From Pyrobaculum sp. (GTDB lineage Archaea > Thermoproteota > Thermoprotei > Thermoproteales > Thermoproteaceae): a stretch of 64,000 nucleotides of DNA. The notes under the pieces are model-generated. The model worked only from the letters and a program-made list of their open reading frames with translations, had not been told where the DNA came from and did no database searches. The first letter of the stretch is position 1. Every line of letters starts with the position of its first letter. Made by a program: the position numbers and the translations under genes. Of the stretch, positions 6,574 to 42,631 are shown piece by piece. The DNA lies in assembly GCA_046293555.1 (NCBI GenBank), contig JBKBOT010000002.1, forward strand, positions 39,608 to 103,607, in the 5' to 3' direction.

Positions 6574-7377
6574 TTATCGTGAGACTGTTGATGTGGGCAA
6601 AAGGTAGAGCAGGGCGGGGATTACAAAGAAGACCAACAGAGCTCGCACTAACGAGTTCTCGTAGGCAATTCCCACTTCAAACGAATAGACCGTGGCAAAT
6701 ACCGCAGCGGTAAGTAACAACAAGATAAATAAGAGGATTTGGGAGACTGTGACTAGCTCTACCATGTTTGCAACTTGTGTAATTTGTACTAACGTTAGAT
6801 GTATAGTGGGGTATATCACAAGCGGTGTTACCCCTATTGCCGCCTTATGTGGAGCTATTTTAGCTAGGACATACGCCATGGCCAGGATTAAGGCGATAGA
6901 GGTTGTGGATATTATAAATGAGTGAAGTGGACCTATCTTAATGGAGTAGGGGAGATAATACCCCACATAGGCAACTCCTAAGAGAGTTAGGGGCGGGTCG
7001 TGTAGTGACCCTAGTAGCAACGTGACTACCCACGTTGCGATTAATACCGAGGCGACAAAATGTATATATGGAGACACGAGAAGCCATACCACAAACGGCC
7101 GCCCGCCCATTAGTGAGAGAAAATTTAGACTCCTAAAAGGCTCTATGGCGGAAATCACCGAGGCCACTCTCTCCCCAAGTTCGGTGAGATATACCATACT
7201 GTCTTCTCTCTTGACCACGCCGAGGCTTTCTAAAGCTGAGAGCTCGAAGAGTAACGTAGATGGAGAAAGTCTCAACTTGTCACGTATTTTTGTCAAAGTC
7301 AGTGGCCCCTCTTTGTGGAGTAGGAGCACTAGATCTCTCCTCCTGCCTATAGACGCTCCGTATATAGCGCGCTCCAC
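6574..7377 (-). CDS. Winged-helix protein fused to a multi-pass membrane domain
   Basis: N-terminal ArsR-like wHTH (RRDLVLLL...LSPSTLLFELSAL...YLTELG) followed by about 5 hydrophobic segments. Confidence 0.7.
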   Translation of the reverse strand: MERAIYGASIGRRRDLVLLLHKEGPLTLTKIRDKLRLSPSTLLFELSALESLGVVKREDSMVYLTELGERVASVISAIEPFRSLNFLSLMGGRPFVVWLLVSPYIHFVASVLIATWVVTLLLGSLHDPPLTLLGVAYVGYYLPYSIKIGPLHSFIISTTSIALILAMAYVLAKIAPHKAAIGVTPLVIYPTIHLTLVQITQVANMVELVTVSQILLFILLLLTAAVFATVYSFEVGIAYENSLVRALLVFFVIPALLYLLPTSTVSR

Positions 7378-7475
7378 GCATAAGACAAAACACTGCCTTA
7401 TTAACTCTATGGCATCTCTAAGCCGCGTTTTACTGGGGCGAAATTGTTAAAAATCCTTCAAACCATGCGTCTTTC

Positions 7476-7754
7476 ATGGCTACAGAACAGACAATACTGA
7501 TAGGCAAAAAACCAACTACAAACTACGTAATTGCCACAGTAATGGCGTTCAACGCTGGGGTAAAAAAAGTGGTGCTTAAGGCAAGAGGCGCCGCGGTGTC
7601 TAAGGCCGTATCTACGGCGGTGATGGTTAGAGATAGGTTCCTGCCGGGCAAGGTCCAAATTAGAGACGTCAAGTTGTTAAGCGACAGGGTACAGGGGCAG
7701 GGAGGAAGAGAGAGAACAGTAGCAGCCGTCGAGGTGGTACTAGAAATGGCATAA
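7476..7754 (+). CDS. albA: Chromatin protein Alba
   Basis: IGKKPTTNYV, LKARGAAVSKAV. Confidence 0.96.
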   Translation: MATEQTILIGKKPTTNYVIATVMAFNAGVKKVVLKARGAAVSKAVSTAVMVRDRFLPGKVQIRDVKLLSDRVQGQGGRERTVAAVEVVLEMA

Positions 7755-7775
7755 TTTTTCCATGTCTCTTTTTAG

Positions 7776-9047
7776 ATGTCTCTTAGAGATGTCGTAAAGA
7801 CACTCCCCACATTCCAACAGTTTCATCCCCCCTACGGCGAATTTTCTATCGCAAAAATCCTAAAGGAGACTGAGGGAAAAACAACTCCCATATTTATAGA
7901 TGTAAAAAGTGGGTTTACTGGCGTTGGAAATCTGGTAGATATACGGAAAAAGCTGTATTGGTACCTAGATGCAAGTAACGACGTAGAGGCATACACACGG
8001 CTTTTAAGGGCGTTAGAAAGCCCCCTCGCCGTAGAGACTGTCTCCACCTGGAGAGACCTCTATAGAGAGGTGGACTCTCTCTACGAGCTGCCTCTTGTCC
8101 GCTATTATGAGAAAGAGGCGCGGCCATATATAACCTCAGGTGTTTTAATAGGCGTAGGTATAGACGGCGTGGCGAACGCCTCTATACATAGGTTTTCGCC
8201 TATTAGCCACAAGAAGGCCGTGGTGAGACTAGTGCCGAGACATATGTATCAAATATATAGAAGGGGTGTAGAGAGCGGGAAAGAGATACCAGTGGCGTTG
8301 GCGTGGGGTGTACACCCCCTAGTTCTACTCGCAGCCGCATCTTCGCCGCCCTACGGCGTATTTGAACTTGAGGTCGCCTCGCGGCTTTTAGGAGGGCTTA
8401 AGGCCGTAATTTTAGACAACGGCGTGACGGCGCCGTTTTTAGCTTCTGTCATAATAGAGGGCTTTTTGACAAAAGAACAGGCTGAGGAAGGGCCTTTTGT
8501 AGACATTGTCGGCGTCTATGACAGAGTTAGAATGCAGCCAGTAGTTAGAGTGGAGAAGATATATATAGTGAGAGAAGAGGCATATGTACACTACTTACTT
8601 CCAGCCGGTTTAGAACATATGGCCTTGATGGGGTTTGAAAAAGAGGTGAAGATATGGAATGCCGTGAGGTCTACGACGCCGGGGGTAAAAAAGGTGAGGC
8701 TCACCAAAGGCGGCTTCGGCTGGCTGGTCGCCGTGATATCGCTAGAGAAATCCGTAGAGGGCGACGCAAAAAACGCAATTCTGGCAGCTTTTGCCGCACA
8801 TCCAAGCCTAAAGATAGCTATTACGGTAGATAGCGACATAGATCCAGAAGACCCCGTGATGGTAGAGTGGGCTATCGCAACTAGGCTTAGGGCGGATAGG
8901 GGGCTCTTCACAATTCCATATGTGAGAGGGTCCACGTTGGACCCCGTAGCGCTAAACGCCGAGGGTCTTACATACAAGATTGGGATAGATGCCACAAGGC
9001 CTCTAGACGCAGATCCCACATTGTTTGAAAGGGCGAGGATACCATAG
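7776..9047 (+). CDS. UbiD-family decarboxylase, probable anhydromevalonate-phosphate decarboxylase
   Basis: EGPFVD, VDSDIDP, WAIATR, GSTLDP, KIGIDAT; clustered with both AcnX subunits. Confidence 0.85.
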   Translation: MSLRDVVKTLPTFQQFHPPYGEFSIAKILKETEGKTTPIFIDVKSGFTGVGNLVDIRKKLYWYLDASNDVEAYTRLLRALESPLAVETVSTWRDLYREVDSLYELPLVRYYEKEARPYITSGVLIGVGIDGVANASIHRFSPISHKKAVVRLVPRHMYQIYRRGVESGKEIPVALAWGVHPLVLLAAASSPPYGVFELEVASRLLGGLKAVILDNGVTAPFLASVIIEGFLTKEQAEEGPFVDIVGVYDRVRMQPVVRVEKIYIVREEAYVHYLLPAGLEHMALMGFEKEVKIWNAVRSTTPGVKKVRLTKGGFGWLVAVISLEKSVEGDAKNAILAAFAAHPSLKIAITVDSDIDPEDPVMVEWAIATRLRADRGLFTIPYVRGSTLDPVALNAEGLTYKIGIDATRPLDADPTLFERARIP

Positions 9048-32341: not shown

Positions 32342-33697
32342 GTGAGAGAGATAGGCATTGTGGTCAGTGGTGTTACCATAGGGTCTATACCAGTCCAGAT
32401 ATACCGCGTTGCAGAACGTCACGCGTTAGAAGAACAGCTAGTGGGGGTGGTAGATAGGGAGAGAGGAGATGAGATAATCGTGGGGTTTCTACGCAGGATA
32501 ACAAAACTCGAGCCCGTGATTAAAGACAAGGTGAGGACCCCATATGTGGACAAGCCAGAAATGATGGACCAAGGGGTGCTCCTCCCATATACATCTGCAA
32601 TTGTAAAGCCCTATGTAAGCATCAAGGGGGGGAAGGTTTGTGAGGTGTCACATGTGGCCACGCCGGGGTCGAGAGTTTACCTACTCGACTCCTCTACCCT
32701 ACAGGACGTATTTCTGGGAGACTACAGCCACGTGGGGTTTCATAAGTACTCCCTATGGCCTCTGCCTTTAGATATAAGCTATGTGACACACCACGTGGGG
32801 GTCTTCGGCGCCACGGGTATGGGCAAGTCCCGTCTCGTGAGGGCCTTAATTAACGAGCTAGCTTCGAGGGGGTATAAAGTGGTGGTTTTTGACCACACGG
32901 GGGTTGACTACGCCTCCCACTACCCCACAGTGGTGAGATCTTCTGAGGTAAAGATCCCCCCAAACGTGTTGGCCTCCGTGTTGGCAAAGGTGACCCAACT
33001 CTCGTGGCAGACATACGGCGACTACCTAGAAATTGCCACCATGACGTATGAGTCCAGTTGGTCAAAAAAGAGCTTTATCGACCACGTGAGGGGGACAATG
33101 AGGAGACTTGGCGCAAGAGACGCCACCGTGCAGAAAATGGAGTTATACCTAAGGCTTATAGACGACGCCTTTTTTGAGGAGTTAAACAACAGGACCAAGA
33201 CGCCAAGAGACATCTTGTCTATAGAAAACACGCCGGTGGTGGTAGACCTAAGTTACGACACAGACCTCTCTGTAAAACAGGCAATAGTGGCTACAGTCAT
33301 CGAGGCGGCTTGGGAGGAGGTAAAACGCCAGAAAACACAAAAAAAGACGGTATTTGTAATAGACGAGGCGCAGAACTACGCCCCGCAGAGCTGGACTATC
33401 TCTAAAGACGCCATAGAGACCACAGTGCGGGAGGGGAGGAAGTGGGGCCTCTCTATAATATTAGCCAGCCAGAGGATTGTAGGAGATATAGACCCCTCCA
33501 TAAGGGCAAATCTAGGCACCATATTTTTCTCACGGCTGTCGGCCCCCACAGACCTCAGAGAGATCTCCACGTACCTAGATCTAGCCGACGTAAACGAGAG
33601 CGTTTTGGCGCAACTACAGCCAAGAGAGTTTTTTGTGTCGGGCCTAATGAACCCCCTACGCAAGCCGATCTTAATTAAAGTCCGCGACGTAGAGTAA
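32342..33697 (+). CDS. herA: HerA-family ATPase/DNA translocase
   Basis: N-terminal HAS barrel, HVGVFGATGMGKS, FDHTG, IDEAQNYAP, REGRKWG, ASQR. Confidence 0.88.
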   Translation: MREIGIVVSGVTIGSIPVQIYRVAERHALEEQLVGVVDRERGDEIIVGFLRRITKLEPVIKDKVRTPYVDKPEMMDQGVLLPYTSAIVKPYVSIKGGKVCEVSHVATPGSRVYLLDSSTLQDVFLGDYSHVGFHKYSLWPLPLDISYVTHHVGVFGATGMGKSRLVRALINELASRGYKVVVFDHTGVDYASHYPTVVRSSEVKIPPNVLASVLAKVTQLSWQTYGDYLEIATMTYESSWSKKSFIDHVRGTMRRLGARDATVQKMELYLRLIDDAFFEELNNRTKTPRDILSIENTPVVVDLSYDTDLSVKQAIVATVIEAAWEEVKRQKTQKKTVFVIDEAQNYAPQSWTISKDAIETTVREGRKWGLSIILASQRIVGDIDPSIRANLGTIFFSRLSAPTDLREISTYLDLADVNESVLAQLQPREFFVSGLMNPLRKPILIKVRDVE

Positions 33698-33725
33698 GTA
33701 TTTATTTCATAGCCCAGACATCTTC

Positions 33726-34883
33726 GTGGCCAGCGACCTTGATGCCGACTACTGGATAGAACCTGAGCTGATGGTAGCCCTCAGACGTGACATAGAGAGA
33801 CAGGTGGAAAAAATGGCAAAATTGGGAGAGGTGGTAAAAGAGGTTGCCTCTCTAAGGACCGGGCTGGAGATTAAACAAATCGCGAAAACACGTGGCTTTG
33901 ATGTATATGCGGTAGATTCCTCTTTTGCCCCACCGCTGGAGCTTGTAGGAGGATTATTTACAGTCATCACATATGGCTATGTCGGCATTTCAAATGGCGT
34001 CCAGGATAAGTTTATTACAGGCACCCTGTATTTTAACGACGATGAAAATATCTCACGATTCTCCTCGTTGCTAGAAAAGAGGCTGGCCACGAGGCTATTA
34101 GACGCAAAGGCGGGAGGCTATAAGCAGTTCGACTTGTTGATATTAGACGGGGAAATTGCCATACACCCGCTGCCGTATAACCTAGCCGCAGAGGGGGGAC
34201 AACGCGAGGTTGTTAACCATGTGGTAGACAAGATGCTAAAAGCCGCATACATGGGCAAGACCACTGTAGTTGCTATCACAAAAAGGGTGAGGTCGAGATA
34301 TCTCTCCGTGGCAGCGGGCCGATGTCTAGAGATAAACGACAAGGTGGCGACTTCATACATCCTAAGGCCTGGAGAGTACTTCTCTTTGGGTAAACTACGG
34401 GAACTTCTGCCAAAGTGGATTAATATCCATTACCTAGAATGCAGCGGCGTAGATAGAGAGGAGGTGTTGAGATGTTATAAAGATGGAGTCTCGCCTAGAG
34501 ACGCCAAGGCTGAGAAGTTGTGTAAAAGACTTAAAGAATTTAAGGAGAACTTCTCCGCCATCCTTAACTCGCCTAGATACCCCCACCTCCGCCATCTAGG
34601 CGACGTGGAGGTGATATACTATATGCCTCACGGCCACAAGACAGCCGTGCGTATAGAGGTACTCGACTTTGGCAACTACGGGGTAGAAGACATAGTGGCC
34701 TACCTGGCCTCCTCTACTTCCCCAACTACAGGCTATCCACAAGTCTTAGACGCGGTGGATCAATACGTGAGGATAAGCCCAGAGCTTGTCGAGGCCATTC
34801 TGACGGCAGTAACCACGAGAAGTCCAGAACTGGCCCTACTCATGTGGCCGACAAACACGCAAAAAAGGCTAGTGAGGTTCTGA
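33726..34883 (+). CDS. nurA: NurA-family 5'-3' nuclease
   Basis: YAVDSS, ILDG, AITKR, GYPQVLDAVD; directly after herA. Confidence 0.85.
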   Translation: MASDLDADYWIEPELMVALRRDIERQVEKMAKLGEVVKEVASLRTGLEIKQIAKTRGFDVYAVDSSFAPPLELVGGLFTVITYGYVGISNGVQDKFITGTLYFNDDENISRFSSLLEKRLATRLLDAKAGGYKQFDLLILDGEIAIHPLPYNLAAEGGQREVVNHVVDKMLKAAYMGKTTVVAITKRVRSRYLSVAAGRCLEINDKVATSYILRPGEYFSLGKLRELLPKWINIHYLECSGVDREEVLRCYKDGVSPRDAKAEKLCKRLKEFKENFSAILNSPRYPHLRHLGDVEVIYYMPHGHKTAVRIEVLDFGNYGVEDIVAYLASSTSPTTGYPQVLDAVDQYVRISPELVEAILTAVTTRSPELALLMWPTNTQKRLVRF

Positions 34884-34894
34884 CCTAGCATACG

Positions 34895-34990
34895 CCAGGC
34901 CCCCGTGGGGGCCCCCGCCCTGAACAGCTGAAGTGGGCTATCACGGCTGTGCCCATACCCCCCACATCCCGGGCCCGAGGGCTATCCACA
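34895..34990 (+). ncRNA. Candidate K-loop structured RNA (pseudouridine-guide-like?)
   Basis: GC-rich non-coding stretch; GCCCTGA-acagc-TGAAG-t-GGGC enclosed by CCGTG/CACGG; strand uncertain. Confidence 0.3.
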
Positions 34991-35029
34991 CGTAAACGAA
35001 CCTTACGCCAAATGGTTTTCAGACCCCCT

Positions 35030-35450
35030 GTCTGTAGTCTGGCAGCTACCTTAAGACCCTTCCCCTCCTCATATCTAGCCGCAACGCGGCCCCCTATGCT
35101 CTTGGCCACACGGCCCTCAGGAGTTTTTCCTTGCCATTTCTTAGCCTATTTAGCGCAAGGGCGGCTATCTCTACTGGCGAGAGGCCCCCGTAGAACCTCT
35201 GGCAGGTCTACTCTCTGTATATATAGTCACCACAGAGCTGTCCTTAAGCACTGGGTACCTCTTTTTTAGAAATCTTACAAGCTCCACACGGCTAGAAAAG
35301 CCGTTTTGCACTCATCAACTTCCGCCACAGTTATGCCGCCCCCTCCACCTCGGCTAACGTCACAATACGTCCCCTGCCGTGTATATACACGCTATCGCCT
35401 ACCTTTATAACGCCGGGCCTTATGGTAGTTTTCTTTAAGCAAAGTCTTTA
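35030..35450 (-). pseudogene. Degraded ASCH-domain protein gene
   Basis: Fragments in several frames: KKTTIRPGVIKVGDSVYIHGRGRIVTLAEVE*, GFSSRVELVRFLKKRYPVLKDSSVVTI, FYGGLSPVEIAALALNRL. Confidence 0.75.
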
Positions 35451-35470
35451 TGACATCATTATGTGTCGTA

Positions 35471-36418
35471 TCATAACGCAGGCGTCTTGCCGAAACCCTC
35501 TACGTCATATTCGTCCACATCTACTGGAAATATCCTAACCCCTATAACCCGCCGCTTTGTGGCAGAAATGGCGGCGAGGTCGTACAAAAGCCTTTTTACC
35601 TCACCCCACTCCCGTATCTTTACTGGGGCCATGTCTAAGCCCGGCACGCAGACCGCCGTGTAGCTAACAAGCTTGTCTAGATTTAAAGCGCCTTCACGTA
35701 CTAACCTCTTTATCTCCTCGTCTTCAGCCACAGGCAACATCACCTCGTTGAAGCCAGTCTTCTTGACTCCAGCCCTCTCTATGGCTTGGTTTATTTTATA
35801 AATCGCGTCGTGTGACCCAAAAGCCCCAAGCCTGATGTTAAACAGCCTCTCCACAGCCTTTGCCACACTCTCGTGCCCCCATGGCGACAGGGAGCCGTCA
35901 ACCCCTATGAACTCTACGCCGAGAGATGACGCCACCTGCATGCCGACTTCCTCCCCCCTCTTTAACACAGTCTCCACATCCTCTAGGCTGTTTAAATCAT
36001 TTGGGTAGAGAAGCGAGATGGACACCCCGCGTCTTGTCGTAACAGAAAGCGGGAAATACGGCGAGTTGTACACCGCCCCGCCTAGAGACAACGCCACATA
36101 GCGGGCGAGGTGGACCTCGCCTACATGTACTCTCTTCAAAAATCTCATATATTCCACCACGTCGCTTAACGAGGCAAAGACGCCATATTGAGAGACATAG
36201 CTATACACCTCGTCTGCGTCATAACGTAGGTGAAGAGCCGAGATGTACTTCACACCAAGATCTCTAAGTCGGGGGATTAACCTCCCCACGTCGCCTCTTG
36301 GCGAGATGGAGACTCTAACTGTGGCGGGATCCACAGCCTTGGCCACATCTAGGAACTTCTCCACTATGGAGAGATCTTCATCTCCCGTCAGATGTAGTGT
36401 AACTGACCGAACTTTCAT
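35471..36418 (-). CDS. DUF711 (UPF0210) family protein
   Basis: MKVRSVT, SPYFP, GVDGSLSPW, GFNEVMLPVAED, VCVPGLDM. Confidence 0.85.
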   Translation of the reverse strand: MKVRSVTLHLTGDEDLSIVEKFLDVAKAVDPATVRVSISPRGDVGRLIPRLRDLGVKYISALHLRYDADEVYSYVSQYGVFASLSDVVEYMRFLKRVHVGEVHLARYVALSLGGAVYNSPYFPLSVTTRRGVSISLLYPNDLNSLEDVETVLKRGEEVGMQVASSLGVEFIGVDGSLSPWGHESVAKAVERLFNIRLGAFGSHDAIYKINQAIERAGVKKTGFNEVMLPVAEDEEIKRLVREGALNLDKLVSYTAVCVPGLDMAPVKIREWGEVKRLLYDLAAISATKRRVIGVRIFPVDVDEYDVEGFGKTPAL

Positions 36419-37311
36419 CAGTAATACCAGGTGGCTAGATGTAAATGTTCCGGCGGATATCTAGACAGGGAGTTCGCCTTACACACATCCTTAAAGGGAC
36501 ATACGCCGCATTGGGGTCCTTCCCGCCTACATATAGACCTCCCGAAACTCCAAAGAAAGTCGTCAAGAAGGAAGGGATGTATATCTACAAACCTGCTGAC
36601 AACCCTCCACCCAGTCTTCACAACCTCTCTCAGCCTCACGTCCTCCTCCCGTGTGGCCTCCACCCCGCTTTCTAAAAAGCCGTAGTCTATATCCACCACG
36701 CCCAGCCTATAGGCCACTCTCGAGAGGTGGTTATCTACAGCCACGTCTGCCTCTTCCACATCTCTAAACTCCGCCAGCTTTCTGCCCCACAGAAACTTTG
36801 CTAACAACATGGCCTTTTTCCCCACTGGGTCCTCATAGGCTCTGATGTTTGCCAGCTCTATCTTTAACTTCTTTAAAGTATCTACAGAAAGCAAGGCCTC
36901 AAAGCCGCCTCGAGCCGCCACCTTTTTCCCCAAGTCTCTCAAGAGGTATACCCTCGTGTAGAAATCCCACACCTTTTTCTCACCTATGGCGAGAAGCCCT
37001 GTCGCATCTACAGGCGTTAAATTTGCCAGCCTTTCGGCCTTAAAAAACCCCCTGTCGTAAAGAATTCTCCCCAGCCTATATAGAGCGTCGGCGCCGTGGT
37101 AAAACCTCCCCCCTATCTCCCCCTCAAAGGCGTCCCAGGGGGTGGAGGTCCTGTGGTCTATGGCCACCATGGCTGTGAAATACGCCAGCTGGCTTTCTCT
37201 AGGGTCGCCGGGTGGGGGGTAGAAAAGGGGATTTAGGTAGTCCTGCCTTATTTCCACCCTTTTTAAGACCTCTGCCACCTCTTCCGCCTTATCTACATCT
37301 ATGGCGACCAC
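36418..37311 (-). CDS. QNG1/DUF2419-like HhH-fold glycosylase with EndoIII-type Fe-S cluster loop
   Basis: DPVGKKAML, AVDNHLSRVAYRLG, LDDFLW, CX6CX2CX5C, C-terminal HLHLATWYY; probable GTG start at 37311. Confidence 0.7.
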   Translation of the reverse strand: MVAIDVDKAEEVAEVLKRVEIRQDYLNPLFYPPPGDPRESQLAYFTAMVAIDHRTSTPWDAFEGEIGGRFYHGADALYRLGRILYDRGFFKAERLANLTPVDATGLLAIGEKKVWDFYTRVYLLRDLGKKVAARGGFEALLSVDTLKKLKIELANIRAYEDPVGKKAMLLAKFLWGRKLAEFRDVEEADVAVDNHLSRVAYRLGVVDIDYGFLESGVEATREEDVRLREVVKTGWRVVSRFVDIHPFLLDDFLWSFGRSICRREGPQCGVCPFKDVCKANSLSRYPPEHLHLATWYY

Positions 37312-37351
37312 GTGACTTCTCAGACATATAAATAAATAACATGCCGAAGCC

Positions 37352-37729
37352 GTGAGAACCTGTGTGGAGCTCAGAGGAAGCATCTCGGTGGCGCATAACC
37401 CCTCTTTTTCGCCAGAGTGGAGTAGAGTACATGGACACGACTATATAATAACTGTGGGCATATGTAAGGAGGGTTATGTCGAACTAGTGGTAGACGCGGG
37501 AGAAGCTGGAAAAAAGCTGGAGGCAGTGCTTACACATATGGATGGCAGATATCTCGCCTCAAGTGTGGAAAAAGACGTGCCGCAAGGCGCCTATGTGGTG
37601 CCTTGCAGCCTGCCGGGAGTTAGCGGCGAGTGTATTGCCAGACATGTTGCAGAACTTATAGACGCCACCTGGGTGAGGGTATGTGAGAGCGGGCTTGGGG
37701 GGCCATGCTTCTATTTTGAAAAAACTTAA
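37352..37729 (+). CDS. QueD/PTPS-family (COG0720) protein lacking the canonical catalytic Cys
   Basis: SVAH, SPEWSRVHGHDY, MDGRYL, SGECIA, VRVCES T-fold motifs. Confidence 0.8.
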   Translation: MRTCVELRGSISVAHNPSFSPEWSRVHGHDYIITVGICKEGYVELVVDAGEAGKKLEAVLTHMDGRYLASSVEKDVPQGAYVVPCSLPGVSGECIARHVAELIDATWVRVCESGLGGPCFYFEKT

Positions 37730-37751
37730 AAAGCTACACCGAGATGGCTAT

Positions 37752-38042
37752 ATGAAACTAGTGGTGAAGTTTTTAGCTACCCTCTACGACATTACGGGGG
37801 TGTTAAAGACAGAGGTTGAAGTGCCAGACGGCATGACGGTTAGACAACTTATTGACCTGCTAGACGGGCGGTTTAAGATTAAGAAAGAGCTGCTAGACGA
37901 GGGGGGCCAGCTCAAGCCTATGTACAACGTCTTGGTTAACGGGAGGGCCATAGAGTGGCTCGGGGGGCTGGAGACAAGGCTGAAAGACGGCGACGAGGTG
38001 GTCTTTATCCCCCCGGCGGCTGGCGGCACGGATCCCACGTAA
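37752..38042 (+). CDS. MoaD/SAMP ubiquitin-like protein
   Basis: VKFLATL, NVLVNG, LKDGDEVVFIPPAAGG followed by TDPT; ATG 37752. Confidence 0.9.
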   Translation: MKLVVKFLATLYDITGVLKTEVEVPDGMTVRQLIDLLDGRFKIKKELLDEGGQLKPMYNVLVNGRAIEWLGGLETRLKDGDEVVFIPPAAGGTDPT

Positions 38043-38436
38043 TATATTCGCCACAGCCGTAAGACAGAACTACATCGCAGAACACTATCACATGTTCGCC
38101 TACCTCCACCTCGCCCCTATATGTGCACTCCACCACCCTGCTTGCATCACCCAGGGCGTTACATTTAAGAAGCCTACAGGGGGCCACGTTTCCCCATCTA
38201 GCCAGCTTGTCTTCCCCCGGCTTTCCAAACACCTCGAGAGCCCGCCAGTCCCCCACTAGGTTTAGGGTAAACATCCCCTCCTGTCGAATAAGCGACAGAG
38301 TTTTGCGGCTTTTATGTAGCGGCACCCCAACTCTCGGCACCTCTCCGGGAATCACGATGGGCCATCCCACCACCGCGCCGTGATTCCCCACTACTAGAAC
38401 CAGGACGGGGGTGGGCAGCGGCGATTTTTCACACAC
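38005..38436 (-). CDS. Flavin reductase-like FMN-binding protein
   Basis: PTPVLVL, TLSLI..GMFTLN, DK, VEC, VGEH; probable GTG start at 38436. Confidence 0.72.
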   Translation of the reverse strand: MCEKSPLPTPVLVLVVGNHGAVVGWPIVIPGEVPRVGVPLHKSRKTLSLIRQEGMFTLNLVGDWRALEVFGKPGEDKLARWGNVAPCRLLKCNALGDASRVVECTYRGEVEVGEHVIVFCDVVLSYGCGEYITWDPCRQPPGG

Positions 38437-38437
38437 G

Positions 38438-39304
38438 TTATAACAACTCGTAGCGGCCGTCGGGATACACCCTGGCGCCCGCCCGCCTGGTTGCCCAACA
38501 GGAAAACACAATGCCTAGCGAAAATGCGGCCGGGTGTCTATATGCATATTCGATATGTACGTCAAGCGCGGTGAACCTGCCCCCCACCCCATGTGTCCCT
38601 ATGCCCAAGGCGTTTATTGCTTTTAACAACTTTTCCTCTATTTCCGCAATTTCTGGCTCTGGGTGTCTAGAGCCCACAGGCCTTAAAACCGCCGCCTTTT
38701 TGGCAAGTCTGGCGGCTATATCTACAGAAGGCCCGACGCCAATCCCCACGACCACTGGAGGACAGGGCATGGGCCCCGCCTCCACCACAGCCTCTAGCAC
38801 CAATCTGGGCATTTCCCTCATGGCGACGCCAGGCGGTAGAGTGAAGACACGGCTGGGGAGCTCGGTGCCGCCCCCCTTTGGGATATAGTAAAACTCTAGG
38901 TAATCCCCGTCAAATAGCTCTACGTCAAACCACGGGGCCCCGGCTCCGGTGTTATCGCCAGGGTTTTTCTCGTGGAATGGATGTACCGTGTTTGGCCTGA
39001 GGGGTAACTCTTGCGTCACCTCGCGGACGGCTCTAGTCAAAATGTCGTAAATTTTGCTTCTAACTGGAAACCCGTCGCCTATCTTTAGGTAAAAGTTGGG
39101 GAAGCCTGTGTCTTGACATACCGCGGCTTTCTCCCCGGCGGCTAGCTCTATGTTTTTTAGTATTGCCTCGAGCTGTATTTTCGCAGCCTCGCTGTCTTCA
39201 ATCATGTGGGCCCTCTTTAGAGAGCTAGTTATGTCAAACGCCGGGGAGATGCTGGCGCGGATCACAGCCTCTTTGGCGGCCTTAAGTAAAATCTCTTCAA
39301 GCAT
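38438..39304 (-). CDS. Class I fumarate hydratase / tartrate dehydratase alpha subunit
   Basis: CQDTG, PLRPN, NTG, KGGGTE, PCPP, CWATR; probable ATG 39304. Confidence 0.92.
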   Translation of the reverse strand: MLEEILLKAAKEAVIRASISPAFDITSSLKRAHMIEDSEAAKIQLEAILKNIELAAGEKAAVCQDTGFPNFYLKIGDGFPVRSKIYDILTRAVREVTQELPLRPNTVHPFHEKNPGDNTGAGAPWFDVELFDGDYLEFYYIPKGGGTELPSRVFTLPPGVAMREMPRLVLEAVVEAGPMPCPPVVVGIGVGPSVDIAARLAKKAAVLRPVGSRHPEPEIAEIEEKLLKAINALGIGTHGVGGRFTALDVHIEYAYRHPAAFSLGIVFSCWATRRAGARVYPDGRYELL

Positions 39305-39347
39305 GTCCCATCCCCAAATGTAATTAATATATTTTCTAATTGATACT

Positions 39348-39917
39348 ATGCCCATATACCATCTAAAAACCCCCCTCTCGAAAGAAGACGTGGAGCCCCT
39401 CCGCGTGGGCGACACGCTTTATATATCCGGGATAGTAGTTGCGGCTAGAGACTCGGCGCATAGACGCATGCTCGAACTAGGGCCTCCTATAGATCTCAAA
39501 GGCGGCGTTATATATCACGCAGGGCCTGTGGCCAGAAGGGAGCCGGCTGGCTGGGAGATTATAAGCATGGGGCCTACCACAAGCGCCAGGATGGAAGCCT
39601 TCCAGGCTGAAGTTATTGAGAGATTTGGCGTAAGGCTTGTGGTGGGGAAGGGCGGCATGGGGAAAAAGACGGCAGAGGCGATGAAGAGACATGTGGCCGC
39701 CTACGCCATATTTACGGGGGGAGCTGGAGTTCTGGCGGCTAAGGCCATCAGGAGGGTAGTTGACGTATACTGGCTAGACTTAGGGATGGCGGAAGCCATG
39801 TGGGTTCTAGAAGTGGAGAACTTCGGCCCCCTTACGGTGATGATTGACCCCACTGGGAGAAATTACTACGAGGAGGCCAGGGAGGAGGCCAGGAGGAGGA
39901 TTTCAGAAATCCTCTAA
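39348..39917 (+). CDS. Class I fumarate hydratase / tartrate dehydratase beta subunit
   Basis: ARDSAH, YHAGP, GPTTSARM, GKGGM, LGMAEA. Confidence 0.92.
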   Translation: MPIYHLKTPLSKEDVEPLRVGDTLYISGIVVAARDSAHRRMLELGPPIDLKGGVIYHAGPVARREPAGWEIISMGPTTSARMEAFQAEVIERFGVRLVVGKGGMGKKTAEAMKRHVAAYAIFTGGAGVLAAKAIRRVVDVYWLDLGMAEAMWVLEVENFGPLTVMIDPTGRNYYEEAREEARRRISEIL

Positions 39918-42631
39918 TGGTTTTTTATCAGCTCCACCCCCAGCTCCAAGAGGCCCTAAAGAGGCTTGGCTACGAGAGGCCCACCCCGGCGCAGACATAT
40001 GGAATTCCCAAAATACTTGAGGGACGACACGTCTTGTTAATCGCGCCGACGGGGTTCGGCAAGACGGAGGCAGCTTTTTTCCCAATAATTTCAAAGATCT
40101 TGGAGGGGGGTCGGGGCGGGGTTAAATGTCTATACATCACGCCACTTAGGTCGTTAAATCGGGATCTGTTAAGAAGGCTATACGCACTGGCTGATCTCCT
40201 CAATTTGTCTATAGCCGTAAGACATGGGGATACCCCAGAGGGCGAGAGGAGGCAGTTGGCCCGAAGGCCTCCAGACGTCTTGATAACAACGCCGGAGTCG
40301 CTCCAGATATTACTACTCCACAGGGGAGTTAGACGTGGTTTAAAAGAGGTGAGACACGTGGTGATAGACGAGATACACGAGCTTGTGGGGAGCAAGAGGG
40401 GCGTCCAGCTGTCTGTAGGGCTCGAGAGACTTGTGGAACTCGCCGGGGAGTTCCAAAGGGTGGGCCTCTCCGCCACAGTGGGGGCCCCCAGACTTGTGGC
40501 AGAATTTCTTGGTGGCAACAGGCCGGTAGAGGTGGTAGACGTCTCTGGAGAAAAAGATTTCCAGATAGAGGCGGTATTGCCGAGCCCCACCGACGAGGAC
40601 TATATAGATGCAGAAAGATACGACGCCACGCCGGAGGCTGTAGCTAGGATAAAAAAAGTGGCGGAATGCATCTCGGCAAATAGAAAGACGTTGGTGTTTG
40701 TAAATACTAGAGACGGCGCGGAGTTTTTAGCCTCCAGGCTTAAACAGATGCTGGGCGACGTGGTTGAGGTACATCACTCCTCTCTCTCGAGAGAACATAG
40801 GATAGCAGTAGAGAGACGTCTTAAAGACGGGGAGCTTAAAGCGGTGGTGGCTACCTCCAGCCTTGAGCTGGGGATAGACATAGGGGATGTGGATTTAGTT
40901 ATTCAATACGGCTCGCCACGGCAGGTAATGAGGCTTATCCAGAGGGTGGGGAGAAGTGGCCACAAACTCGGGCTTGTGTCTAGAGGGGTTGTGGTGTCTA
41001 TAGACATGGAGGACTACCTAGAGTCCACAATAATAGCGGAGAGGGCAGTTGACAGACGTGTTGAAGAAGAGGTAGAGTACCACGAGAGCTCTCTGGATGT
41101 GCTCTTACATCAGGTAGTTGGGATCACATTAGAGGCGAGGTTGGACAGTAGGGAAATTGACGTGAATTACGTGGCGAGAATTGTCAAAAGGGCCCACCCA
41201 TACAGGGGTTTAACCATAGAGGACTTAAAGCTAGTGCTGGATTTTGCGGAACGTCACGGGCTGCTAAAGGGGTTGAGGCCTAGGAGGGGCAGCATAAGAT
41301 ACTACTTTGAGAACGTATCCACCATCCCGGACGAGAAGAGCTATAAGACGGTAGATATCACTACAAACAAGACCGTGGGGGAGTTAGATCAGGAGTTTGT
41401 ATATTCTCTCGAGCCGGGCGCTAAGATTATCCTCTCCGGCAGGGTGTGGGCCTTCTCTAGGGAGGAGGGAGACGTGGTGTATCTATACCCAGAATATGAC
41501 ACCACGGGTGCCCTACCCGCTTGGCTTGGAGAACAGATACCGGTACCATACGAAATCGCGCAGGAGGTGTGTAGAAAACGTGTGGAGTTTCTCCAAGGCG
41601 GCAAGTGGGAGGAGGAGATCCCCCCAGACCTGGTGCCAACCCCCGATAGGCTACATGTACACATAGTGGAGAACAAACATGTGGTAATACATAGCTGTCT
41701 TGGCTCTAAGGGAAATGAGACACTTGGGCTGTATCTATCTCACGCCCTTTCGGGCTATGTGGGGCCTGTAGGCTATAGGTCAGATGCCTATCGAGTCCTC
41801 CTGACTTTTAGAGAATACATCCCCCTCAGGTCCCTCTTTGAGGTTTTGGAGAGACCAGAAGACTTTATTTATAAGACGTTAAGAAACGCCGTTAAAAGCT
41901 CTAAGATGTTCCGATATCGATTTATACAAGTAGCCAAGAGGACAGGCATCATATCTAGAGATGCCGAAGAAATTCCACACAAACTTGTAGACATATATCT
42001 AGATGATCTCCCTGGCATTGAAACTATTAACGAGATTTTTGTAGAGAGATTAGATCTCAAATCCTTTTTCAGACTGTTGGCAAAGATAAAAAACAGAGAA
42101 ATAGAGGTGGTGGTAAAGAGGCTGCCTAAAGCCACAGCCCTAGAGAGGCCCATATTAGAGGAGGCACTTAGGCTTGACTTCTCGTTTAGAGGTCTCTCTA
42201 GAGAGGCGGTAATAGATATGACTAGACGAAGGATATTAAACAAGATTGTGACACTTCTATGTCTAAACTGCGGCTGGCACCTTACAGCTAGAGCTGGCAT
42301 GTTGTCAGAAGAGCCGTCATGTCAAAACTGCGGAAGGCGGGTACTAGCTGTAGTAAAAGGAGACGTCACCAAGGCGAAAAACGTGTTAAATAAGTTCAAG
42401 ATCAGACAGAGGTTAACCCCAGAGGAGAGGAAGTTACTAGAAAACTTACAACAAAGCGCCGCCATAGTTTTGGAGCATGGCAAACTTGGGGTTGTGGCCC
42501 AGATGGCCCACGGCGTGGGCCCCAAAACGGCGGTGAGAATCTTAAATAGGGTGGTAAATAGTGGCGACTTATGGGCCGCGATTATGGAGGCAGAGAGGCA
42601 ATATGCCTCTACGAGGGCGTTTTGGGATTAG
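39917..42631 (+). CDS. lhr: Lhr-family DEAH helicase
   Basis: APTGFGKT, TTPESL, DEIH, GLSAT, HHSSLS, SSLELGIDIG, QRVGRSGH; C-terminal CxxC..CxxC. Confidence 0.93.
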   Translation: MVFYQLHPQLQEALKRLGYERPTPAQTYGIPKILEGRHVLLIAPTGFGKTEAAFFPIISKILEGGRGGVKCLYITPLRSLNRDLLRRLYALADLLNLSIAVRHGDTPEGERRQLARRPPDVLITTPESLQILLLHRGVRRGLKEVRHVVIDEIHELVGSKRGVQLSVGLERLVELAGEFQRVGLSATVGAPRLVAEFLGGNRPVEVVDVSGEKDFQIEAVLPSPTDEDYIDAERYDATPEAVARIKKVAECISANRKTLVFVNTRDGAEFLASRLKQMLGDVVEVHHSSLSREHRIAVERRLKDGELKAVVATSSLELGIDIGDVDLVIQYGSPRQVMRLIQRVGRSGHKLGLVSRGVVVSIDMEDYLESTIIAERAVDRRVEEEVEYHESSLDVLLHQVVGITLEARLDSREIDVNYVARIVKRAHPYRGLTIEDLKLVLDFAERHGLLKGLRPRRGSIRYYFENVSTIPDEKSYKTVDITTNKTVGELDQEFVYSLEPGAKIILSGRVWAFSREEGDVVYLYPEYDTTGALPAWLGEQIPVPYEIAQEVCRKRVEFLQGGKWEEEIPPDLVPTPDRLHVHIVENKHVVIHSCLGSKGNETLGLYLSHALSGYVGPVGYRSDAYRVLLTFREYIPLRSLFEVLERPEDFIYKTLRNAVKSSKMFRYRFIQVAKRTGIISRDAEEIPHKLVDIYLDDLPGIETINEIFVERLDLKSFFRLLAKIKNREIEVVVKRLPKATALERPILEEALRLDFSFRGLSREAVIDMTRRRILNKIVTLLCLNCGWHLTARAGMLSEEPSCQNCGRRVLAVVKGDVTKAKNVLNKFKIRQRLTPEERKLLENLQQSAAIVLEHGKLGVVAQMAHGVGPKTAVRILNRVVNSGDLWAAIMEAERQYASTRAFWD

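Follow-up and report, generated by a model that had tools for sequence, protein, structure and literature searches.

Which substrate should be expected of a glycosylase that has the fold of a mononucleotide-hydrolysing enzyme and carries a cysteine loop resembling that of DNA repair enzymes? This question is raised by a locus of Pyrobaculum sp. (contig JBKBOT010000002.1, positions 39,608 to 103,607 of the forward strand; this stretch of 64,000 nucleotides is referred to as the window), in which the gene for such a glycosylase lies between the gene for a compact paralog of the DUF711 family, which it overlaps, and a divergently transcribed gene of the COG0720 (PTPS/QueD-like) family. An earlier note, made from the sequence alone, had proposed that the three genes form one co-regulated module for the salvage of pterins or 7-deazaguanines. 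The product of the middle gene is an uncharacterised archaeal relative of QNG1 with an added Fe-S loop, closest to the QNG1/DUF2419 family, and a role in the recycling of modified guanine nucleotides is plausible but unproven. The reading that we prefer, to which we give a probability of roughly 45%, is that it is an N-glycosylase for mononucleotides of guanine with a cationic 7-substituent, archaeosine being the leading candidate, that the DUF711 paralog takes part in the same process, and that the COG0720 protein is a QueD lacking the usual cysteine.

A QNG1 relative in Pyrobaculum

QNG1 (Qng1; DUF2419; Q_salvage, PF10343) is a queuosine-5'-phosphate N-glycosylase represented by the structures 7U07, 7UK3, 7U91 and 8DL3, and has so far been known for queuine salvage in eukaryotes and in a few bacteria. 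Searched alone, the Pyrobaculum glycosylase has no Pfam match at E<=0.01, hence none to PF10343 or to PF00730 (HhH-GPD, HhH denoting helix-hairpin-helix), stays below the cut-off of the AGOG family PF09171 (15.5 bits vs 26.1) and yields only a 19-bit mutY match over its cysteine loop; against the sequences of the Protein Data Bank (PDB) it aligns with endonuclease III (EndoIII) from the motif VAVDNH through the four cysteines, with an E-value of 0.02. A profile of 29 homologs with 36-76% identity to the query matches StQng1 across profile positions 3-274 (E 2e-4), and matches EndoIII and MutY only in the C-terminal stretch from VAVDNH through the four cysteines. When the 29 members were scanned singly at E<=1, 27 matched AGOG, 16 Q_salvage, 8 the EndoIII Fe-S motif and 2 HhH-GPD, the best E-values being 1.6e-8 for AGOG and 5.9e-7 for PF10343. 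Public annotation names such homologs “iron-sulfur cluster loop” or “N-glycosylase/DNA lyase” proteins, and precomputed labels assign PF09171 to most of the close ones.

Structure comparison gives a consistent ranking. The AlphaFold2 model built on the homolog alignment has a mean pLDDT (predicted local distance difference test) of 94.8, and the top 10 Foldseek matches to it are all QNG1 chains (TM-score 0.77-0.80, E ~1e-10), followed by MutY and EndoIII at a TM-score of ~0.5. With VIA-align, wild-type StQng1 (7uk3) superposes on the model from end to end (model 1-297, chain 23-323) with a Z-score of 29.4 and a root-mean-square deviation of 2.3 over 269 aligned residues, at 23% identity. Six further QNG1 entries score Z 28.7-29.0, so that seven QNG1 entries outrank every DNA glycosylase, among them EndoIII at 17.6 and Pa-AGOG at 16.4. 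The ESM Atlas returns a TM-score of 0.91 to a cluster named “queuosine 5'-phosphate N-glycosylase/hydrolase”. The proposal of the earlier note that the protein is QNG1-like and not a repair-type HhH glycosylase is thus borne out by the hidden Markov model (HMM) and structure comparisons alike.

Active site and cysteine loop

The motifs on which that proposal had been based are present as quoted, namely KKAMLLAKFL, VAVDNH, EEDVRLRE, LDDFLW, C261-x6-C268-x2-C271-x5-C277 and the terminal HLHLATWYY. They are not a matter of chance, since K165, K166, D193, H195, D224, R228, D250, D251, W254, the four cysteines and Y297 are invariant in all 29 aligned homologs, down to 36% identity; D52, G73 and G257 are likewise invariant in the family alignments, and A74, D75, N194 and R258 are conserved in at least 90%. 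The correspondence of these residues to QNG1 was taken from HMMER alignments, using a loop-less relative (P0138) against StQng1 and a truncated family profile against human QNG1. The truncated profile, from which the Fe-S loop was left out, reaches E 0.095 to human QNG1 and serves for residue mapping, not as evidence of membership. We regard the map as credible because the alignments agree with the spacing of the invariant motifs and with the end-to-end superposition.

In QNG1, D231 acts as the nucleophile and K199 binds the hydroxyls of the ribose; the base is recognised by D298, through hydrogen bonds to the guanine edge, and by W302, through stacking (PMC9881137). D231-Y232-K233 of StQng1 corresponds to D193-N194-H195 of the Pyrobaculum family, where D193 aligns with both the Asp of VDTH in EndoIII and that of FADYR in human QNG1; K199 corresponds to K165/K166, which were aligned to YKRAQ of human QNG1, and D298-W299-x-x-W302 to D250-D251-x-x-W254, with identical D-x3-W spacing. 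The remaining correspondences are N72 and F75 to D52 and T55, G92-Y93-W94 to G73-A74-D75, E267 and R271 to D224 and R228, G305-Q306 to G257-R258, and Y323 to Y297. The cyclopentenediol pocket of QNG1 is described as consisting of W48, Y93, W94 and W299, and its 5'-phosphate as being held by R80, K233, Q306 and Y232 (PMC9881137); of the aromatic residues, Y93, W94 and W299 correspond to A74, D75 and D251. The carboxylate of the terminal Y323, a residue anchored by E267 and H316, contacts the 3'-OH, and QNG1 enzymes are reported as inactive on Q-3'MP, tRNA, AMP, UMP, CMP and GMP (PMC9881137). The Pyrobaculum protein likewise ends in tyrosine, as do 77 of 80 related loci, the remaining three matches ending short of the terminus, and residue 297 of the model superposes on Y323 of wild-type StQng1. 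Read from the aligned sequences, the catalytic pair, the guanine-reading Asp, the stacking Trp and the tail device thus appear to be retained, the hydrophobic queuine pocket seems to have turned small and acidic, and the phosphate site looks altered (Lys to His, Gln to Arg) yet still basic.

From the stacking Trp to the terminus there are 43 residues in the glycosylase and 21 in StQng1, a difference that is due to the insertion of the CX6CX2CX5C loop of 17 residues. The loop aligns to the cluster loops of 1p59, 1orn and 8a5f. The earlier note had described it as an addition to characterised QNG1, which agrees with the text of the QNG1 structure paper (PMC9881137), in which the term “iron-sulfur” is absent. 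The hairpin region of the HhH motif reads AYEDPVxKK, with D161 and P162 invariant, and LPGVGxK of EndoIII and MutY is not present there.

Conservation of gene order

Gene order was compared in the window's genome and its 40 closest genomes, 41 in total, in which g1 is the window's own genus (named relatives are Pyrobaculum). At E<1e-40 the glycosylase was found in 37 of these genomes and the compact DUF711 protein in 33. In 25 of the 33 the pair stands side by side on the same strand (13 in g1, 5 in g3, 5 in g6 and 2 in g7); contig ends interrupt it in three (G010, G018, G034), and the genes are non-adjacent in five (G012, G020, G025, G029, G039). The gaps between the open reading frames (ORFs) of the pair are 23-173 bp in g6 and g7, and the pair covers two families of the Thermoproteales, between which the glycosylases are only ~40% identical. 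The tie between glycosylase and DUF711 gene that the earlier note had inferred from their overlap therefore extends well beyond the genus, and the pair is operon-like. In G012, a complete genome of the genus, the two genes are separated by an insert of 4.4 kb (L109:1850-6267) with several short ORFs and one of 240 aa that by eye is radical-SAM/SPASM-like.

In every genome of g1 (15) and g3 (5) that has the COG0720 gene, it adjoins the glycosylase gene, and it does so in no other of the 41; a three-gene module as a general unit is consequently not supported, and the COG0720 gene is a lineage-specific, queD-like neighbour. G004 and G013 (96% and 98% complete) lack all three genes and retain queC, queE and TGT, a joint loss that a single deletion could explain.

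A second sample consisted of 80 loci from named species genomes, which were scanned with tblastn. In the 14 closest, titled Pyrobaculum, Thermoproteus, Thermoproteaceae or Thermoproteales, the DUF711 gene is adjacent in 12 and the PTPS gene in 13; L017 ends at the glycosylase gene and L020 has neither neighbour. Among the other 66 loci no PTPS match was obtained with tblastn and no DUF711 gene stands beside the glycosylase, a DUF711-like match in L067 lying ~4.5 kb off on the other strand, so that a link to DUF711 outside the Thermoproteales did not hold up.

The QueD-like protein and the preQ0 genes

The COG0720 protein matches PF01242 (PTPS) at 27.2 bits (cut-off 22.4) and falls far below the cut-off of the QueD equivalog TIGR03367 (25.6 vs 89.25 bits). 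Its best solved relative, PH0634, carries E-D-V-HGH. QueD/PTPS-I is characterised by the motif CxxxHGH and PTPS-III by ExxHGH, and types PTPS-IV, -V and -VI are listed as well, PTPS-V being given there without a clear function (PMC5041015). In the segment SPEWSRVHGH of the Pyrobaculum protein, W-S-R-V-HGH has no Cys at -4 and has Ser at -3 instead of Glu; the three His are retained, and Asp-Gly stands in place of the Asp-His dyad. That the QueD cysteine is missing, with a Trp at its position in CxxxHGH, had thus been described correctly. W-x3-HGH itself is present but is not a family signature, as relatives have Tyr or Ala at that position, and we rejected it as the mark of a subtype. The relatives consistently lack both the QueD Cys and the PTPS-III Glu and share four cysteines in the C-terminal half (VPC, GEC, VCE, PCF). 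The subtype is narrow, comprising 20 clusters which, wherever named, are Pyrobaculum.

This gene is the only PF01242 match in its genome, and 31 of the 41 compared genomes have such a match, exactly one each. G009 has a canonical CxxxHGH QueD in place of the Cys-less form, away from the glycosylase; in G020 the Cys-less subtype lies directly upstream of queE; and G021 has the order queE, nurA, DUF711, glycosylase, COG0720, with the last three on one strand and queE 1.3 kb off. G004 and G013 retain queE and queC without any PF01242 match. Since it is the sole PF01242 gene and stands directly upstream of queE in G020, the COG0720 protein is, as judged from its sequence and context, most likely a QueD that lacks the Cys and serves de novo preQ0 synthesis, and not an enzyme of pterin salvage, the role that the earlier note had considered for it. 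The glycosylase is linked to 7-deazaguanines through the neighbourhood of the COG0720 gene, not through its chemistry.

The window's genome also carries queC, arcTGT and a queE broken over three frames. This queE (L099:1504-2126, on contig 5) consists of pieces of 66, 56 and 58 aa in different frames; in relatives it is intact at ~220 aa. The split reflects either frameshift errors of the draft assembly or a pseudogene, and in the latter case de novo preQ0 synthesis would be broken in this organism.

The compact DUF711 paralog

The protein encoded downstream of the glycosylase matches PF05167 at 112.3 bits (cut-off 25), the match covering only profile positions 239-396, that is, the C-terminal half. 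Its model (pLDDT 94.5) superposes over the whole chain on SP0239 (2ha9; VIA-align Z 29.9, 294 residues aligned), and the next structural matches are ribonucleotide reductase (RNR) alpha chains (Z 10-12) and glycyl-radical enzymes (Z 7-11), in agreement with the ECOD placement quoted in PMC4390871. The model accordingly suggests a ten-stranded barrel of the type found in RNR and pyruvate formate-lyase (PFL). The DUF711 identity given in the earlier note stands, with the qualification that the gene encodes a shortened paralog: a canonical DUF711 protein of 448 aa is encoded elsewhere in the genome (contig 59), where an overlapping ACT-like ORF precedes it. DUF711/UPF0210 proteins are usually paired with a small ACT-domain protein. 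At the compact paralog such a partner is missing, the gene upstream being the QNG1-like one. Full-text literature searches, judged by titles and abstracts, returned no functional characterisation of DUF711, UPF0210 or PF05167. For a complex between the QNG1-like protein and the DUF711 paralog, prediction gave values of 0.00 and 0.01, the mark being 0.32, which is uninformative either way.

Layout of the locus and flanking genes

Three ORFs occupy the interval, and the coordinates of the features assigned to it are collected in Table 1. The middle ORF extends over 36418-37383. Homologs begin at the position of the GTG at 37311 in the alignment, which sets the product at 297 aa and the spacer to the COG0720 gene at 40 bp; a reading of 321 aa from the ATG at 37383 was rejected, as it departs from this start and would overlap the start of the COG0720 gene. 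On the minus strand the junction of the glycosylase and DUF711 genes reads TGG TAT TAC TGATG AAA, stop and start overlapping by 1 base. The only AT-rich block of the divergent spacer is atataaataaataa, situated ~20 bp from either start codon, and its position would be compatible with one common TATA region and leaderless transcripts. The arrangement of three genes, overlap and short spacer with one such block is hence as originally described.

Table 1. Positions in the window of the genes and sequence elements of the glycosylase locus
Feature	Position	Strand	Remarks
N-glycosylase of QNG1/DUF2419 fold, predicted Fe-S loop	36418..37311	-	297 aa; GTG start; stop 36418-36420
D193 codon (VAVDNH), predicted catalytic Asp of the HhH motif	36733..36735	-	From alignments to EndoIII and human QNG1; invariant 29/29
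CX6CX2CX5C loop (C261, C268, C271, C277), predicted [4Fe-4S]	36481..36531	-	From alignments to EndoIII/MutY loops; Cys invariant
C-terminal TWYY tail, terminal Tyr predicted to place its carboxylate in the active site	36421..36432	-	Y297 invariant
Compact DUF711 paralog	35471..36418	-	315 aa; translationally coupled to the glycosylase by TGATG overlap
Divergent spacer	37312..37351	.	40 bp; single AT-rich block 37326-37339
Cys-less COG0720 (PTPS/QueD-like) protein	37352..37729	+	125 aa; His triad H15/H27/H29 present

Flanking genes were examined over positions 32342-34883 and 37683-42631 of the window. On the DUF711 side lie an ORF of 451 aa for a P-loop ATPase (32342-33697), which by eye and from its pairing resembles HerA, and then a gene with a NurA domain (Pfam); the ~590 bp between nurA and the DUF711 gene (34884-35470) contain no convincing ORF. 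A tRNA search over 33500-39000 and an Rfam scan over 34700-35600 (E<=0.01) both came back empty. The COG0720 gene is followed directly by a MoaD/SAMP-type gene of the ThiS fold, an order retained in the seven closest loci (L013-L019), and beyond it a flavin-reductase-like gene and two ORFs that by eye resemble the alpha and beta subunits of fumarate hydratase; an ORF of 904 aa with helicase motifs, Lhr-like by eye, lies on the same side.

Wider neighbourhood and extent of the family

Genes surrounding the glycosylase in these 80 loci were clustered and the clusters labelled with Pfam. In 25 loci the next downstream gene on the same strand encodes PBP2 (PolB1-binding protein 2, ~100 aa, belonging to the replicative polymerase as a subunit; identified by PF22511 at 97 bits), and in seven more PBP2 is encoded near the glycosylase on the other strand (six downstream, one upstream). 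In 10 loci a dCTP-deaminase/dUTPase-like gene stands directly upstream, ending -22 to +158 bp from the glycosylase start. The arrangement of dUTPase-like gene, glycosylase and PBP2 occurs within L043-L092 (e.g., L056:5525-7600), mostly in loci titled Desulfurococcales, Acidilobaceae/Acidilobus or Pyrodictiaceae, several having broader titles. The PBP2 gene is described as standing isolated in variable surroundings and as undetectable in Thermoproteales (PMC5418573), and the window's genome has no PF22511 match. This context would fit nucleotide-pool hygiene and replication-linked repair alike. A gene for an S-adenosylmethionine (AdoMet)-dependent methyltransferase with a spermidine-synthase-like domain lies within ~0.4 kb of the glycosylase or PBP2 genes in 13 loci, for example in L063, from a Pyrodictiaceae metagenome-assembled genome, and in L076 (positions ~7279-8138); in 12 loci a gene for AdoMet decarboxylase is present upstream.

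The family itself is large. The profile of the 29 homologs retrieves 1224 clusters (50% identity) at E<=1e-3 and 199 at E<=1e-30, and 368 stretches match the glycosylase among species-representative genomes. Relatives of ~700 aa (P0141, P0129, P0146 and similar) have an N-terminal region of ~380 aa that starts with hydrophobic stretches, and many of them are without the Cys loop; this region has no Pfam match, and NCBIfam is blank for 14 fused relatives. Among 20 distant relatives 13 match PF10343 at E<=1e-3, seven of them over the 25-bit cut-off. The ESM Atlas also contains Chloroflexota clusters in which a PfkB carbohydrate/nucleoside kinase domain is joined to a Q_salvage domain; they might point to the kinase that supplies QNG1 with queuosine-5'-phosphate. 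Of 86 sampled genomes of the class, 53 have the glycosylase family, which is missing from whole taxonomic families (f14, 0 of 18; f4, 0 of 6). TGT is present in 85 of the 86, the sole exception being G003, which has the glycosylase. This phyletic pattern speaks neither for nor against a tie to archaeosine.

Proposed function and alternatives

By analogy with QNG1, the glycosylase would be a retaining HhH-type N-glycosylase that probably acts on a free nucleoside 5'-monophosphate (or nucleoside) and not on a polymer. D193 would attack or stabilise C1', K165 or K166 together with the C-terminal carboxylate of Y297 would hold the ribose, D250 would read the Watson-Crick edge of a guanine-type base with W254 stacking on it, and H195 and R258 would be located where QNG1 binds the 5'-phosphate. 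The preferred base would probably be a guanine with a small cationic 7-substituent, because the cyclopentenediol pocket is rebuilt with A74, D75 and D251. The leading candidate substrate would be the 5'-monophosphate of archaeosine (or preQ0) derived from tRNA turnover, in which case the freed base could be reused by ArcTGT and 7-deazaguanine nucleotides would be kept out of the nucleotide pool. Free archaeosine base is described as deamidating spontaneously to preQ0, which archaea salvage (PMC5699537), so that nothing beyond freeing the base would be needed for ArcTGT to reuse it. The CX6CX2CX5C loop would probably bind a structural [4Fe-4S] cluster that supports the tail on its way back to the active site, and the compact DUF711 protein may act in the same process, at a step that we leave unspecified.

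Several observations weigh against this proposal. The function is predicted from sequence and a structural model, and the residue map is drawn from weak pairwise HMMER alignments (E 0.1-0.3) and from a superposition known by its end points. By analogy with EndoIII and MutY, the Fe-S loop may be a DNA-contacting element, and the frequent PBP2 gene downstream, as well as the fusion of one Chloroflexota relative (P0214) to a GIY-YIG nuclease domain, likewise count against it. The acidic-pocket motifs LDDxLW and HG(A/S)DL are also found in distant relatives that are bacterial or of unknown origin and for which archaeosine would not be anticipated; 33 of the 86 class genomes manage without the glycosylase; and G009 has the glycosylase and no DUF711 match.

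These points are in part those that would make the enzyme a DNA (or RNA-polymer) glycosylase for damaged or modified guanine, linked to replication or repair, with polymer binding kept or regained via the Fe-S loop and the queD-like neighbour in Pyrobaculum and Thermoproteus being incidental. We take this explanation seriously while doubting it: the cluster loop is of the EndoIII/MutY type, VDNH resembles VDTH of EndoIII, PBP2 genes lie downstream, dUTPase-like genes abut the start of the glycosylase gene and nearly all of the 29 homologs show weak AGOG matches, yet the similarity to every DNA glycosylase lies ~12 Z units below that to QNG1, and the dUTPase neighbourhood suits a nucleotide-pool role equally. 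A mononucleotide is ahead of a polymer as the likely substrate, if not by much, because the HhH hairpin is an acidic YEDPV with invariant acidic residues including D161 and not LPGVG, and because the terminal-carboxylate device, with its terminal Tyr and aligned anchor residues, is retained, a device that in QNG1 is incompatible with a 3'-phosphate and excludes tRNA. The same nucleotide-level features would serve a general pool sanitiser of hyperthermophiles acting on a damaged or modified guanine other than a 7-deazaguanine, such as 8-oxo-(d)GMP or an N7-alkylated guanine (m7G) nucleotide, or on another thermally generated purine; N7-methylguanine, which is positively charged, would fit the acidic pocket as well, and the dUTPase neighbours, the many TGT-positive genomes without the enzyme and the distant relatives in bacteria are in keeping with such a function. 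We nonetheless hold it to be unlikely, given that a queD-like gene is adjacent in all 20 g1 and g3 genomes that have it, with queE near in G021, and that QNG1 itself is described as lacking the OGG1 residue that reads N7 (PMC9881137). Least probable is the complete model of the earlier note, in which all three genes constitute one co-regulated salvage route extending to pterins, with the COG0720 protein acting on recycled dihydroneopterin-type substrates. The 40-bp spacer with its single AT-rich block, the joint absence of the three genes from G004 and G013 and their location on one strand in G021 had spoken for it, but the triad is restricted to two genera, the joint loss may be a single deletion, the COG0720 gene appears to fill a single-copy QueD slot (as seen in 31 genomes, in the canonical form of G009 and beside queE in G020), and no link of DUF711 or QNG1-type enzymes to pterins was found. 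We therefore retain hydrolysis of a 7-substituted guanine mononucleotide as the preferred reading, with which the dUTPase-like neighbours agree insofar as they fit nucleotide-pool hygiene. Its most far-reaching form, in which the enzyme would be the first archaeosine (7-formamidino-7-deazaguanine) nucleotide N-glycosylase, an Fe-S paralog of QNG1 that closes the 7-deazaguanine recycling loop in Thermoproteota and works with the compact DUF711 barrel, and in which the Cys-less QueD would make preQ0 by means of a catalytic residue moved to another position, seems rather unlikely to hold in every part.

Significance

The family described here is a large uncharacterised sister group of QNG1, whose archaeal core joins the QNG1 scaffold with an EndoIII-type Fe-S loop and a rebuilt specificity pocket. 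Full-text searches, judged by their listings and by passages of PMC9881137 and PMC5699537, returned no publication linking the QNG1/DUF2419 family to archaea or to an Fe-S loop, although an earlier mention of archaeal homologs may exist. For the handling in archaea of archaeosine and preQ0 nucleotides from tRNA turnover, the glycosylase provides a directly testable candidate. The conserved pairing gives DUF711, with its RNR/PFL-like barrel, a defined partner and, if the proposal is true, a first biochemical context for that family, while the dUTPase-like and PBP2 context elsewhere raises the alternative of a new function in nucleotide-pool or DNA hygiene in hyperthermophiles.

Comparison with known systems

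Among characterised enzymes, QNG1 shares with the Pyrobaculum glycosylase the whole-chain fold, the HhH Lys and Asp, the guanine-reading Asp, the stacking Trp, the acidic residue (Glu or Asp) that anchors the tail and the terminal Tyr. It differs in having no 17-residue CX6CX2CX5C loop ahead of the tail, in its aromatic pocket, where Y93, W94 and W299 are replaced by Ala, Asp and Asp in the glycosylase, and in further positions at which DYK has become DNH, Q306 Arg and F75 Thr; the beta-hairpin insertion within the HhH motif also appears shorter in the glycosylase. Queuosine, moreover, is not expected in archaea. EndoIII and MutY resemble the protein in the spacing of the cluster loop, in (V/I)xVD(T/N)H around the catalytic Asp and in the two-lobe HhH fold (Z 15-17.6), whereas the glycosylase lacks the LPGVG hairpin and, according to its model, has QNG1-type additions and a tail that returns to the active site. 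Pa-AGOG, the 8-oxoguanine DNA glycosylase of Pyrobaculum aerophilum (PF09171), shares the HhH fold (Z 16.4) and weak profile matches; to our knowledge AGOG has neither an Fe-S loop nor a conserved terminal Tyr.

The neighbouring proteins likewise combine known and altered features. The COG0720 protein shares with QueD and PTPS-III the match to the T-fold family PF01242 and the His triad, but has neither the Cys at -4 nor the Glu at -3, and Asp-Gly replaces Asp-His. The compact DUF711 paralog aligns with SP0239/UPF0210 (2HA9) in the motifs LSPWG, EVMLPxAED and CxxGxDM; in contrast to UPF0210/DUF711 proteins it is ~130 residues shorter, has an N-terminal half outside the Pfam match and, in place of an ACT-domain partner, has a fixed position downstream of the QNG1-like gene.

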